Virus record (IMG/VR): IMGVR_UViG_2671180986_000009
Origin: a virus
Taxonomy: Duplodnaviria; Heunggongvirae; Uroviricota; Caudoviricetes
Reading direction: 5' to 3' (one strand)
DNA length: 12,948 nucleotides
A model generated the notes under the pieces. The model ran no database searches and was not told the origin of the DNA. It was given only the letters and a program-made list of their open reading frames with translations. Positions 1 to 9,163 of the stretch are shown in pieces. Within the stretch, counting starts at the first letter, position 1, and the number at the start of each line of letters is the position of its first letter. Made by a program: the position numbers and the translations under genes.

Positions 1-129
1 TACGCCGGACCACCGTTCCGCCGACCAGACTCTGCAGATCTTCCGCCATCCCGGTGACCATGCCGTACAGATTAGAGACTTTAACGTTTTAGTGCACTCA
101 TTGAGTGTTTCCTGCTGTATATCCTGCAT
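1..129 (-). pseudogene. Minor tail protein L homologue (lambda gpL-like), disrupted. N-terminal 13 codons (91-129) are joined out of frame to a mid-gene segment (1-88) that runs off the window edge.
   Basis: ATG at 127-129 overlaps the M stop (TGATG) and reads MQDIQQETLNECT, matching the lambda gpL N-terminus as I recall it. After codon 13 the frame reads unrelated sequence. A different frame, opened by a TAA at 89-91, reads NVKVSNLYGMVTGMAEDLQSLVGGTVVRR, which matches lambda gpL around residues 80-108. About 65 codons of L are therefore absent and the two parts are out of frame. Confidence 0.5.
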
Positions 130-470
130 CAGTGAGTGACCTCTTCAAAGGTACAGTTAAAATCGGTATACATGGCATTATCCGAAATGCTCCACTCCCT
201 GCAGACAACCCGGACAGTCCTGTTGTGTTTTGGCGGACGCCACAAAAAAGCACGAATCCCGGCATGACGGGATAAAAAACTGTCCAGCGCGGCACGGGAA
301 TATTCATCTGTGACACGAAATACCGGTTTAAACGTTTTCAGATCCGCATTCAGACCACCAGCCCGTCGCTGTTCATATCCGTCACCAAACTTTACCGTAA
401 TAACTGATGGCTTTCGTGTCGTCTCCATCCCCTCACGGGGGATCCAGTTAAAAACTTCAGGCTCAGGCAC
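129..470 (-). CDS. Minor tail protein M (lambda gpM-like)
   Basis: The translation contains KFGDGYEQRRAGGLNADLKTF...FLWRPP...CREWS...FEEVTH, colinear with lambda gpM (VRFGDGYSQRAPAGLNANLKTY...FLWTPP...CAKWS...FEQVVN). Preferred start is GTG at 468-470, preceded by GGAGGA with about 8 nt spacing; an alternative ATG lies at 483-485. Stop TGA at 129-131. The start overlaps the tape-measure stop. Confidence 0.8.
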   Translation of the reverse strand: MPEPEVFNWIPREGMETTRKPSVITVKFGDGYEQRRAGGLNADLKTFKPVFRVTDEYSRAALDSFLSRHAGIRAFLWRPPKHNRTVRVVCREWSISDNAMYTDFNCTFEEVTH

Positions 471-3400
471 TGTACAATCCTCCATCCCGACGCGATGACT
501 GCATAATTGACACAACCCTGCTGTCGATCAGATCCACCAGTCCCCTGGCTGAGCGCGCATCTATCTCGCCATTGCTCCCTTGATTCTGAATGCTGATGTG
601 ATACACGGGAGAATAAACAAATCCACCGCCACCATTCACATTTCCAATGGCCCTGACCCCAAGAGAGCCGTCCGCTGCCCGTGTCAGTGGCATGATTGCT
701 TCAGGCCCGGCCTCGCCCATCAACCCGGCACCTTTCGCAAAAGCAAAATACGTCGGTGTATCCACAATAGTGTTACTGTAAGCACTCAGATTTGCCGATG
801 TGTAAACACCACCTTTTGCGTTTGCCACTGCCCCCGAAATCCATCCGCCGACCGTACCAAGCCACCCTCCGGCACCGGAGAGTGATTTCAGTCCGTTAAC
901 AATGGCTGCATTCATCAGAATTTTTGAAACTTCCCGGAGAACTGAACTCCCCCAGTTCCTCCAGTCCACAACATTCCCGGCCAGTGCATCGGAAATATTT
1001 GATACCAGCCCGTCCATCGTGGAAACGACAGCATCTGCCGCCTGTGAAGCATAATCGGTGGCACTGTCTGCCCAGTTGGTCAGTCCCTCCTGGAGTCCGG
1101 CATTCCAGTTATTACGTAAAGCATCGGCCTTTGCATAATAATTCTGCTGATCGCTGAGACGCTCTTCCAGATATTTTTTATTCAGTTCTTTCTCCTGTTT
1201 CCACAGGGCTTCTTCAATTTCTCCGGCCTGATACTGTCTCAGCAGCTCGTTATTTTTCTGCTCAAACGCCTGCCGGATACTCCACATTTCCTGGAGTCGT
1301 TCACGCATCCGTGAGCCTTCACCATATCCCAACAACTGCGCTTCGTCAGATGCCCGGGCACTGGCATTACTGTCCGCCAGACTGCTCTCATACGCAGCAA
1401 GCTGCTCACGAATCTTTTTCTGGTCGATGAGTGCTGCATTCTGCAAAAGCGTTTTTTTCTGCGCTTCTGACAGGGTTGATAATTCGCCCTGACTGACCTG
1501 ATATTTCATCTTAGCCAGTTCAGTATTCTGCCCTGCCAGTGCTATTTGTTCTTTTTGCTGTTTAATCAGCCGTTTATAAATATCTTCTGTTTTTTCCGCT
1601 TCGGTCTTTTTATGCGCTTTGGGTTTATTTGCCTGGTTATTTCGCCAGGCATCCAGTGAGTTATTGATATAATTCTGTCTGGCTGTCTGATATGCCTCTC
1701 CCACAAAGCCGAGATCATCCGNNNNNNNNNNNNNNNNNNNNNNNNNNNNNNNNNNNNNNNNNNNNNNNNNNNNNNNNNNNNNNNNNNNNNNNNNNNNNNN
1801 NNNNNNNNNNNNNNNNNNNNNNNNNNNNNNNNNNNNNNNNNNNNNNNNNNNNNNNNNNNNNNNNNNNNNNNNNNNNNNNNNNNNNNNNNNNNNNNNNNNN
1901 NNNNNNNNNNNNNNNNNNNNNNNNNNNNNNNNNNNNNNNNNNNNNNNNNNNNNNNNNNNNNNNNNNNNNNNNNNNNNNNNNNNNNNNNNNNNNNNNNNNN
2001 NNNNNNNNNNNNNNNNNNNNNNNNNNNNNNNNNNNNNNNNNNNNNNNNNNNNNNNNNNNNNNNNNNNNNNNNNNNNNNNNNNNNNNNNNNNNNNNNNNNN
2101 NNNNNNNNNNNNNNNNNNNNNNNNNNNNNNNNNNNNNNNNNNNNNNNNNNNNNNNNNNNNNNNNNNNNNNNNNNNNNNNNNNNNNNNNNNNNNNNNNNNN
2201 NNNNNNNNNNNNNNNNNNNNNNNNNNNNNNNNNNNNNNNNNNNNNNNNNNNNNNNNNNNNNNNNNNNNNNNNNNNNNNNNNNNNNNNNNNNNNNNNNNNN
2301 NNNNNNNNNNNNNNNNNNNNNNNNNNNNNNNNNNNNNNNNNNNNNNNNNNNNNNNNNNNNNNNNNNNNNNNNNNNNNNNNNNNNNNNNNNNNNNNNNNNN
2401 NNNNNNNNNNNNNNNNNNNNNNNNNNNNNNNNNNNNNNNNNNNNNNNNNNNNNNNNNNNNNNNNNNNNNNNNNNNNNNNNNNNNNNNNNNNNNNNNNNNN
2501 NNNNNNNNNNNNNNNNNNNNNNNNNNNNNNNNNNNNNNNNNNNNNNNNNNNNNNNNNNNNNNNNNNNNNNNNNNNNNNNNNNNNNNNNNNNNNNNNNNNN
2601 NNNNNNNNNNNNNNNNNNNNNNNNNNNNNNNNNNNNNNNNNNNNNNNNNNNNNNNNNNNNNNNNNNNNNNNNNNNNNNNNNNNNNNNNNNNNNNNNNNNN
2701 NNNNNNNNNNNNNNNNNNNNNNNNNNNNNNNNNNNNNNNNNNNNNNNNNNNNNNNNNNNNNNNNNNNNNNNNNNNNNNNNNNNNNNNNNNNNNNNNNNNN
2801 NNNNNNNNNNNNNNNNNNNNNNNNNNNNNNNNNNNNNNNNNNNNNNNNNNNNNNNNNNNNNNNNNNNNNNNNNNNNNNNNNNNNNNNNNNNNNNNNNNNN
2901 NNNNNNNNNNNNNNNNNNNNNNNNNNNNNNNNNNNNNNNNNNNNNNNNNNNNNNNNNNNNNNNNNNNNNNNNNNNNNNNNNNNNNNNNNNNNNNNNNNNN
3001 NNNNNNNNNNNNNNNNNNNNNNNNNNNNNNNNNNNNNNNNNNNNNNNNNNNNNNNNNNNNNNNNNNNNNNNNNNNNNNNNNNNNNNNNNNNNNNNNNNNN
3101 NNNNNNNNNNNNNNNNNNNNNNNNNNNNNNNNNNNNNNNNNNNNNNNNNNNNNNNNNNNNNNNNNNNNNNNNNNNNNNNNNNNNNNNNNNNNNNNNNNNN
3201 NNNNNNNNNNNNNNNNNNNNNNNNNNNNNNNNNNNNNNNNNNNNNNNNNNNNNNNNNNNNNNNNNNNNNNNNNNNNNNNNNNNNNNNNNNNNNNNNNNNN
3301 NNNNNNNNNNNNNNNNNNNNNNNNNNNNNNNNNNNNNNNNNNNNNNNNNNNNNNNNNNNNNNNNNNNNNNNNNNNNNNNNNNNNNNNNNNNNNNNNNNNN

Positions 3401-4049
3401 NNNNNNNNNNNNNNNNNNNNNNNNNNNNNNNNNNNNNNNNNNNNNNNNNNNNNNNNNNNNNNNNNNNNNNNNNNNNNNNNNNNNNGTGATCACCGAACTG
3501 GCTTCTGCTGTACTGGCACCGGATAATTTCAGGCCCGTGGAGATCGCCTCGGTGACNNNNNNNNNNNNNNNNNNNNNNNNNNNNNNNTTTCAGTACCTCC
3601 TCAGAACTGTAACCATACTCCCGCATGGAAGCTGCAGAGCGGGCAAAAAGGCTGGCGTTATCAGAAAAAGCCGTCCCCGTTCTCTGGCTGATCGCCATTA
3701 ATTCACGCTGTGATGACTGAAAATCATCACTGGACTGTGAGGCCTGCTTCAGACGGGCATTTACTGAATTCCACTCATCGGCGAGAGAAATAAGATGACC
3801 GGTAGCAAAAGCCCCGGCAAATGCCCCCGCCATGTTCAGTGCCGAAGATTTAGCTGTATTTATCTGATCCGTCACTTCTGCCAGTGCACGCCGCATTTCA
3901 CGGGATGCAGCAGCGGACTGTCGGCCTCCGTTCTGCATGGTACGGTAGTAATCCTGCCCCATACGCGAAGCCCGGGAGATCTCTGACTGGAATGACCGGG
4001 AATTTGCCGAGATTTTAATAATCAGTTCACGTAATGTCGCCACACTCAT
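463..4049 (-). CDS. Tail tape measure protein (lambda gpH-like); interior largely N-masked
   Basis: N-terminal segment from ATG 4047-4049 reads MSVATLRELIIKIS...; unmasked island 3486-3556 reads VTEAISTGLKLSGASTAEASSVI; C-terminal 413 aa (463-1704) is coiled-coil rich and ends ...RRDGGLYSA, resembling the lambda gpH C-terminus (...RDGGLFSGGGR). The three unmasked pieces lie in different coordinate frames, so continuity across the masks cannot be verified. Confidence 0.75.
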
Positions 4050-4405: not shown

Positions 4406-4608
4406 CCTCGCCAGCATCACTGATCAGTTCCAGAGACTGCCGAAGAAGCCGCGCANNNNNNNNNNNNNNNNNNNNNNNNNNNNNNNNNNCCGGGCCATAC
4501 ACGGCAATCACCTGTTCACGATCATCCACTGAAAATACAGGTTGCAGTCCGGTATCACACAGAACATCGATGAACAGTTCAACATCCGCTTCCAGATTTC
4601 GGCGGGCG
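4392..4608 (-). CDS. Tail assembly chaperone G (lambda gpG-like); partial, N-terminus masked, 34-nt internal mask
   Basis: Only one minus-strand frame is open on each side of the 4456-4489 mask and it is the same coordinate frame: ARRNLEADVELFIDVLCDTGLQPVFSVDDREQVIAVYGP...ARLLRQSLELISDAGEVKKK*, with TAG at 4392-4394. Position between the major tail and tape measure genes and the frameshift site support the call. Confidence 0.7.
4395..4401 (-). promoter_or_regulatory. Programmed -1 ribosomal frameshift slippery heptamer A_AAA_AAG (G to G-T)
   Basis: Minus strand reads GTT AAA AAA AAG TAG at the end of the G frame (run of 8 A's at 4396-4403). Slipping back one base puts the ribosome in the T frame (..K K V A L P G M R F L..). 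The position at the 3' end of G, just before its stop, is as expected for tail chaperone frameshifting. Confidence 0.75.
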
Positions 4609-4843
4609 NNNNNNNNNNNNNNNNNNNNNNNNNNNNNNNNNNNNNNNNNNNNNNNNNNNNNNNNNNNNNNNNNNNNNNNNNNNNNNNNNNNNNNNNNNNN
4701 NNNNNNNNNNNNNNNNNNNNNNNNNNNNNNNNNNNNNNNNNNNNNNNNNNNNNNNNNNNNNNNNNNNNNNNNNNNNNNNNNNNNNNNNNNNNNNNNNNNN
4801 NNNNNNNNNNNNNNNNNNNNNNNNNNNNNNNNNNNNNNNNNNN

Positions 4844-5579: not shown

Positions 5580-5636
5580 NNNNNNNNNNNNNNNNNNNNN
5601 NNNNNNNNNNGCGGGTGGGTAAAATCATTAATGACC

Positions 5637-5733: not shown

Positions 5734-6857
5734 NNNNNNNNNNNNNNNNNNNNNNNNNNNNNNNNNNNNNNNNNNNNNNNNNNNNNNNNNNNNNNNNNNN
5801 NNNNNNNNNNNNNNNNNNNNNNNNNNNNNNNNNNNNNNNNNNNNNNNNNNNNNNNNNNNNNNNNNNNNNNNNNNNNNNNNNNNNNNNNNNNNNNNNNNNN
5901 NNNNNNNNNNNNNNNNNNNNNNNNNNNNNNNNNNNNNNNNNNNNNNNNNNNNNNNNNNNNNNNNNNNNNNNNNNNNNNNNNNNNNNNNNNNNNNNNNNNN
6001 NNNNNNNNNNNNNNNNTCATCAATAGCCTGATTCATTCGNNNNNNNNNNNNNNNNNNNNNNNNNNNNNNNNNNNNNNNNNNNNNNNNNNNNNNNNNNNNN
6101 NNNNNNNNNNNNNNNNNNNNNNNNNNNNNNNNNNNNNNNNNNNNNNNNNNNNNNNNNNNNNNNNNNNNNNNNNNNNNNNNNNNNNNNNNNNNNNNNNNNN
6201 NNNNNNNNNNNNNNNNNNNNNNNNNNNNNNNNNNNNNNNNNNNNNNNNNNNNNNNNNNNNNNNNNNNNNNNNNNNNNNNNNNNNNNNNNNNNNNNNNNNN
6301 NNNNNNNNNNNNNNNNNNNNNNNNNNNNNNNNNNNNNNNNNNNNNNNNNNNNNNNNNNNNNNNNNNNNNNNNNNNNNNNNNNNNNNNNNNNNNNNNNNNN
6401 NNNNNNNNNNNNNNNNNNNNNNNNNNNNNNNNNNNNNNNNNNNNNNNNNNNNNNNNNNNNNNNNNNNNNNNNNNNNNNNNNNNNNNNNNNNNNNNNNNNN
6501 NNNNNNNNNNNNNNNNNNNNNNNNNNNNNNNNNNNNNNNNNNNNNNNNNNNNNNNNNNNNNNNNNNNNNNNNNNNNNNNNNNNNNNNNNNNNNNNNNNNN
6601 NNNNNNNNNNNNNNNNNNNNNNNNNNNNNNNNNNNNNNNNNNNNNNNNNNNNNNNNNNNNNNNNNNNNNNNNNNNNNNNNNNNNNNNNNNNNNNNNNNNN
6701 NNNNNNNNNNNNNNNNNNNNNNNNNNNNNNNNNNNNNNNNNNNNNNNNNNNNNNNNNNNNNNNNNNNNNNNNNNNNNNNNNNNNNNNNNNNNNNNNNNNN
6801 NNNNNNNNNNNNNNNNNNNNNNNNNNNNNNNNNNNNNNNNNNNNNNNNNNNNNNNNN

Positions 6858-6921: not shown

Positions 6922-7255
6922 CTACAAAGGAATAAAACGATAAGGCTCCAGCAGAGAAGAAAAACCAAACGGGACTGGTGCCTTGCTGACATCTGAGGAA
7001 TTTTCCCGGTTTTCGTACCAGTGCCCGACCAGCAACATGAGCGCCAGCAAAACATCATCAGCTATAAGCACCCCTTCAGGATCACCTTCCGGCACCGTCT
7101 CCTCATAAAGCTTACGGTTGATAAAATTTTCTGCCTTGCGGCAGGCAGCCCGGAAATACAGCATCAGNNNNNNNNNNNATCAGTAACTCATCATCAGTTG
7201 CATCATCTGTATCAATACGGCACTGCGCCCTGAGTTTTTCCACTATTGCTGCCAT
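6922..7255 (-). CDS. gp6-like head-tail connector protein; contains an 11-nt mask across which the reading frame changes
   Basis: ATG at 7253-7255 is preceded by AGGAG. N-terminal part reads MAAIVEKLRAQCRIDTDDATDDELL. After the 7168-7178 mask the family-like sequence continues in another frame (LMLYFRAACRKAENFINRKLYEETVPEGDPEGVLIADDVLLALMLLVGHWYENRE...PYRFIPL*), with TAG at 6922-6924. Confidence 0.65.
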
Positions 7256-8563: not shown

Positions 8564-9163
8564 TTATGCATTAAGAAGAGTCAAAAGACGCTCACGCGCC
8601 ATTCGTTCGTTAACAGCTTTCTTCAGCGCACCACTCGCCCGCGCTTCCTGCCAGGCTTTCATTGAGCGGACACCAGAGTCTGCGTCCTGATAGGCCGGAT
8701 ATGTCACCGGGCTGACGTCATACAGACGAGAAATGCGCGTGATTTCCCGGATAACAATCCCCTCGTCGTCTTCATACCAGCTCTCTCCGTCACGGGCGAC
8801 ACGAAACGCGAACGAGGACTGATTAATGTCACCACGCAACATTGGAGACAGCACCAGGTCACAAATAGTCGGAGTATCCGGTGCAACAATGTCATAACGT
8901 AAACCGCGTTCATCCACCGACAATGACAACGTGCCGGCAGAACTTCGTCCGAGAATGAAATTAGGATCATGATTAAACAAGCCACGTACATCATCATTCA
9001 GTACATCATCAAAAGCCCCCGGCTTGATGATTTCACGAAATCCCCACAGAGGTTCTGAACGACTGTTAAATACCGAGCCATACCCCAGAATGTGGGTCGG
9101 GGCATTATCATATTGTTCCGCCCGCACCTCCCCGCTGTAACAGCGCGTTTCACGGTCATTCAT
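8564..9163 (-). CDS. Prohead maturation protease, HK97 family
   Basis: 199-aa ORF (MNDRETRCYSGEVRAEQYD...ILGYGSVFNSRSEPLWGFREII...DVSPVTYPAY...). GAGGA ribosome-binding site about 9 nt upstream of the ATG; start overlaps the portal stop by 8 nt. Confidence 0.85.
   Translation of the reverse strand: MNDRETRCYSGEVRAEQYDNAPTHILGYGSVFNSRSEPLWGFREIIKPGAFDDVLNDDVRGLFNHDPNFILGRSSAGTLSLSVDERGLRYDIVAPDTPTICDLVLSPMLRGDINQSSFAFRVARDGESWYEDDEGIVIREITRISRLYDVSPVTYPAYQDADSGVRSMKAWQEARASGALKKAVNERMARERLLTLLNA

Follow-up and report, generated by a model that had tools for sequence, protein, structure and literature searches.

An internal 190-bp deletion in the tail-tip gene L of a lambdoid Escherichia coli prophage sequence

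The whole stretch of DNA analysed here, hereafter the window, is 12,948 bases long and appears to be the head-and-tail module of a lambdoid Escherichia coli prophage, with HK97-type head and packaging genes and lambda-type tail genes. Within it, the gene for the tail-tip hub protein L seems to have been hit by one internal 190-bp deletion, which takes codons 16–78 and one further base. Judged from its sequence, L is here a pseudogene of the gpL family, without an uninterrupted open reading frame (ORF) of about 232 amino acids that encodes the whole HDI domain (residues 1–166). We put the probability that the deletion is real at roughly 60%. The initial annotation had offered an either-or reading, in which the prophage is cryptic and tail-defective or the window carries an assembly artefact, and this reading is supported by the evidence below.

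The L gene and its intact counterparts

All genes in the window lie on the minus strand. An intact gene for an M-like minor tail (distal tail) protein of 118 amino acids (129..485, minus strand; Pfam PF05939, 109.8 bits) is located directly upstream of L, and its TGA stop (131–129) shares one base with the L ATG (129–127); the other genes of the tail-tip block M-L-K-I-J fall outside the window. The start codon and codons 2–15 of L (MQDIQQETLNECTKT; L nt 1–45) are present in native frame at 85..129 (minus strand), as established by alignment to intact L. At 84..85, alignment and breakpoint analysis place the deletion junction: window 85 is the last base before it (L nt 45) and window 84 the first after it (L nt 236), which leaves out 190 bp of L. 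From there to the window edge (1..84, minus strand), alignment and a PF05100 hit identify L nt 236–319, made up of the last two bases of codon 79 followed by K80–R107 (KVSNLYGMVTGMAEDLQSLVGGTVVRR). Given that the loss comprises codons 16–78 plus one base, the frame shifts after 15 codons, and translation from the ATG gives MQDIQQETLNECTKT followed by the unrelated residues LKSLICTAWSPGW..., the out-of-frame part reading LKSLICTAWSPGWRKICRVWSAERWSGV as far as the window edge. Of this frameshifted reading frame, 43 codons are visible (1..129, minus strand), and its predicted product is 52 amino acids long if the DNA past the window continues as in relatives. The L remnant at 1..84 keeps the native L frame, which here is not that of the start codon, and is cut off by the window edge; this visible remainder of L (84–1) is undamaged. 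The frame to which it belongs, offset by 2, reads ...Q*VH*NVKVSNLYGMVTGMAEDLQSLVGGTVVRR, and its TAA stop just upstream of the junction (89..91, minus strand, read as 91–89) means that read-in from upstream is blocked. The cysteines of the C-terminal [4Fe-4S] site lie beyond window position 1 and are present in intact relatives.

The alignment took as its reference the L gene of E. coli strain 165 (L001), which is 699 bp long and annotated as ‘phage minor tail protein L’; EBJ003 (L004) and FDAARGOS_943 (L005, NZ_CP065615.1) were the further strains compared. Window 129–85 corresponds to L nt 1–45 and window 84–1 to L nt 236–319, with no mismatch to FDAARGOS_943, and the same two-flank match with a 190-bp loss is obtained against all three strains. 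The absent 190 bases (L nt 46–235) run GAGCAATCC...GGCCAACGC and encode residues 16–78 plus the first base of codon 79. The intact allele, which in E. coli prophages is 232 amino acids long, encodes a protein starting MQDIQQETLNECTKTEQS... and reads ...ECTKTEQS, with K14 and T15 native. An internal deletion disrupts L and shifts its frame, as the initial annotation proposed, and this can be seen directly from the two frames and from the alignment to intact L; our translations likewise agree with its description of a gpL N-terminus that diverges after the ATG at 127–129 and of a second frame with a TAA at 89–91. Its count of 13 retained codons has to be corrected to 15, K14 and T15 being native to the intact local allele, and its estimate of about 65 lost codons (about 200 bp) to 63 codons and one base, or 190 bp in all.

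The resemblance to L is not a matter of chance, given that both flanks are nucleotide-identical to hundreds of intact L genes and that the 29-residue L fragment scores 28.8 bits against a PF05100 cut-off of 25 (profile positions 50–78). Window positions 85–1721 are 100% identical to FDAARGOS_943, the prophage of which shows 5 differences from the window in about 9.7 kb of visible aligned sequence and encodes an identical M protein. This exact M protein occurs in 9,756 blocks of a public collection, and an intact 232-amino-acid L directly follows the same M protein in 10 of the 10 places listed. Of 5,426 complete E. coli genomes, 4,172 match window 1–520 by megablast; the best matches cover the whole query, but in two pieces that span 710 instead of 520 bases. 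Genomes carrying the L region do so in a median of 2 places and in up to 7.

Searches for the junction in other sequences

When an 81-base query across the junction was compared by megablast with the 5,426 complete genomes of E. coli, all matches listed were in two pieces, whereas an exact match in one piece would have ranked first. For the 520-base query, too, a one-piece match to complete E. coli genomes was not found among the matches listed, the pieces lying 190 bp apart. In phage records (50,697), every junction-spanning match among those listed falls into two pieces and is about 190 bp longer than the query, and plasmids hold no place covering 80% of the query. A 32-base junction pattern has 0 matches in IMG/VR, GTDB species representatives and JGI metagenomes. 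A shorter pattern of 19 bases has 3 matches, all in unrelated sequences, and these were dismissed as chance. At the protein level, the 52-amino-acid frameshift product is found neither in a database of 5.8 billion protein clusters nor by exact look-up of 15 billion proteins. The C-terminal L fragments expected from a start at M87 are not found by exact look-up either, and the sole L fragment that it returned has an M91 start and is built from another allele (P0002); a 146-amino-acid L fragment with an M87 start and one residue different is present on 6 contigs (P0004). A scan for the K protein in GTDB representatives yielded 56 loci, 0 of them with N-runs or the junction. The junction is unique among the searchable sequences, and its occurrence in no other sequence indicates that it is not a natural variant of L. 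The initial annotation had named an intact ORF with the same junction in homologues as a finding that would overturn its reading, and no homologue listed in these searches carries such a junction.

The sole related match to the 52-amino-acid product comes from a 548-bp ENA metagenome contig (P0001), which has a different out-of-frame internal deletion in L. It belongs to the same L allele family as the window copy, and its internal deletion shifts into the same wrong frame (...VWSAERWSGVRFTPVFWM), but the breakpoints differ and P0001 keeps residues 1–64. It represents either an independent event or an independent (assembly) artefact.

Alignment to intact L genes, proposed in the initial annotation as a way to define the endpoints and any flanking microhomology, fixes them at L nt 45 and 236 and reveals no microhomology at the exact junction, which lies one base off the nearest. 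The breakpoint analysis found no direct repeats spaced 190 bp apart; the nearest at the breakpoints are AACG, with copies 189 bp apart, and AGTGCA, with a spacing of 188 bp. Had the AACG repeat guided a deletion, 189 bp would be gone and the frame kept. No hairpin or DNA fold joining the two endpoints was found, nor do the missing 190 bases turn up in another visible part of the window. The junction thus reflects either one event that needed no repeat or two losses, of 189 bp and of 1 bp. If it arose in vivo, illegitimate recombination without repeat guidance would be the probable route, after which translation from the L start would leave the frame after 15 residues and stop after about 52, with the rest of L behind the TAA.

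Scaffold structure and the origin of the junction

All unmasked segments of the window align to relatives without indels, which bears out the statement of the initial annotation that the other unmasked structural genes are intact. For M, T, the major capsid protein, the protease, the portal, TerL and TerS, at least one relative encodes exactly the same protein. The complete proteins of the window are all common alleles, and apart from the lesion in L no defect is visible. The head maturation protease (8564–9163 in the window) is one intact ORF of 199 amino acids, identical to the proteins of EBJ003 and FDAARGOS_943; in the phage records L002 (7822–8420) and L075 (8139–8737) the same gene is given as two CDS and appears split.

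The window contains 3,207 N in 8 runs (1722–3485, 3557–3587, 4456–4489, 4609–4843, 5580–5610, 5734–6016, 6040–6857 and 7168–7178), two of which enclose an island of 23 bases (6017–6039). Compared with relatives that match the flanks exactly, 31 N stand for 0 bases, and where the flanks overlap, 11 N stand at a 5-base overlap and 31 N at a 3-base overlap; elsewhere, 34 N stand for 4 bases, 235 for 205 and 1764 for 1442. The N-runs therefore look like the gaps of a fragmented short-read scaffold and not like length-preserving masks, and with their lengths wrong, gene lengths and frames across them are untrustworthy. At face value the tape-measure gene H (463–4043, minus strand) is 3581 nt long, which is not a multiple of 3, compared with 3228 nt (1075 amino acids) in relatives; its frame changes across the N-runs, and the ORF list splits it into 463–1704 and 1566–4049. 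This odd length most likely stems from the incorrect sizes of the N-runs; that H is a second pseudogene is less likely.

The first base of the window is L nt 319, and an independent partial genome record, ON470607.1 (L075), stops at L nt 318; the last site in this stretch at which lambda-type L alleles and the window allele differ lies about 35 bases before that. This suggests that both sequences break off at one and the same repeat common to several prophages. The left edge of the window is therefore probably a true contig end, and its 12,948 bases are probably a whole scaffold. Two further records labelled ‘complete genome’, ON470621.1 (L002) and ON470586.1 (L003), end exactly at the M stop codon, without L, K, I, J and the rest, and are truncated prophage predictions, not complete phages. 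Ten loci in GTDB representatives (L019, L021, L022, L024, L026, L028, L030, L031, L032 and L038) encode an L protein identical to the lambda gpL of PDB 8iyk. The representative genomes concerned belong to unrelated taxa, namely Neobacillus, Pseudomonas, Shewanella, Chromatium, Paenibacillus, Bradyrhizobium, Leeuwenhoekiella, Oceanobacillus and a Chromatiales MAG, and several lie on contigs of about 1x coverage; these loci look like lambda DNA contamination of those assemblies.

A real deletion is favoured by the geometry of the junction: the two points brought together are separated by 190 bp on one strand of a single gene, which is the signature of a deletion and very unlikely for a random chimeric join. 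The sequence continues for 84 further bases after the junction and ends one base beyond the end of ON470607.1, as a normal contig would on reaching a shared repeat. Decay, moreover, does occur in this lineage, as three IS insertions (IS21, IS110 and IS66) and a frameshifted Q are present in the nearest relative. On the other side stand the 8 N-runs of wrong length in a poor-quality assembly of a repeat-rich region, the position of the junction 85 bases from the apparent scaffold end, the lack of independent confirmation of the junction in any other sequence and the lack of microhomology at the exact breakpoint. A rival explanation, which we regard as doubtful yet serious, is an assembly artefact: the true L would be intact, and a chimeric or template-switched read, or a gap wrongly closed close to the end of the scaffold, would have produced the junction. 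In its favour, the N-runs behave as scaffold gaps of wrong length and leave the 23-base island, H measures 3581 nt at face value against 3228 nt in relatives, L is multi-copy in E. coli (median 2, up to 7 places per genome), and the other aberrant L junction, on the 548-bp contig P0001, may itself be real or an artefact. Assembly errors also concentrate at contig ends, and a junction only 85 bases from a probable one raises the chance of an artefact. However, a k-mer graph assembler needs reads that contain the junction, at which only 4 bases are shared, offset by one, and a random chimera rarely joins points 190 bp apart in the same orientation. An unflagged scaffold gap at L was considered and rejected: the scaffolder put N-runs at all other joins, and marked even true gaps of zero or less in this way.

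That the 190 bases were removed after assembly, when the window was prepared and by the same process that produced the N-runs, seems improbable. The window is indeed not a base-for-base natural copy, its N-runs failing to preserve length relative to a prophage that differs at 5 positions in about 9.7 kb, but there is no N at the junction, whereas the other irregularities are N-marked, add length and fit ordinary scaffold gaps. It is scarcely credible that the window encodes a functional short L without residues 16–78, or one recoded by a frameshift at the junction. Beyond the undamaged visible remainder of L we found no point in its support, and a natural short variant or recoding is close to refuted by a junction found in no homologue, by the 63 residues of the HDI beta-sandwich that would be gone even with a perfect frameshift, and by the TAA that closes the downstream frame just before the junction.

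Consequences for tail assembly

In lambda genetics, L mutants are without tail assembly. The L protein of an intact relative aligns over its full length with lambda gpL (PDB 8iyk chain L; 1.2e-150), at about 94% identity as counted from the alignment. In lambda, gpL residues 1–166 form the N-terminal beta-sandwich HDI domain, which makes up the last tail ring, and the C-terminal domain binds a [4Fe-4S] cluster through Cys173, 182, 205 and 212 (PMC10721106). Given that the lost residues 16–78 fall within the HDI beta-sandwich and that the frame is shifted, the window copy cannot yield a functional L, and the prophage would be unable to make its own tail tip. Tail assembly would thus be abolished unless another resident prophage supplies L, which is plausible in trans, as most E. 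coli genomes hold several L-bearing prophages, with a median of 2 such places in the genomes that carry the region. A defective prophage is one with at least one essential morphogenesis gene disrupted, and in the sequence as it stands L is such a gene.

The gene for lambda gpL (PF05100, Phage_tail_L; PDB 8iyk, 8iyl and 8k35) follows M with the same overlapping stop and start as in the window. The window copy differs in that it is without nt 46–235 and frameshifted, and the full domain cannot be encoded. A lambdoid tail gene inactivated by a frameshift is likewise known from laboratory lambda, in stf (PMC10721106), but stf is dispensable, lambda remaining infectious without it, unlike L. The prophage of FDAARGOS_943 has the same gene order as the window, is near-identical to it and is itself decayed; its L is intact, however, and its lesions are insertions and a frameshift elsewhere, whereas the lesion of the window is the 190-bp deletion in L. 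In FDAARGOS_943 (NZ_CP065615.1) the lesion sites are at 2982–3670, 12481–14450 and 22392–26658: Q is frameshifted, an IS21 lies between the head-closure and gp10-like genes, and an IS110 and an IS66 split J. The IS21 site falls in the N-runs of the window at 5734–6857, and the source of the window may or may not share this IS21.

It is very improbable that the deletion is real and has been kept as useful to the host, be it in a tamed prophage that makes tailless heads or needs a co-resident L, or through the untouched C-terminal iron-sulfur domain, translated from an internal ATG (M87) and serving in another role. If the junction is an artefact, it serves as a warning on contig ends in fragmented assemblies of genomes with multiple prophages. 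Either way the finding entails no new biology and belongs to a known kind of event, ordinary prophage decay or assembly error. If the deletion is real, L should be annotated as a pseudogene and the prophage does not belong among the inducible, self-sufficient phages, even though another lambdoid prophage in the same cell could provide L or, through recombination, restore the gene.
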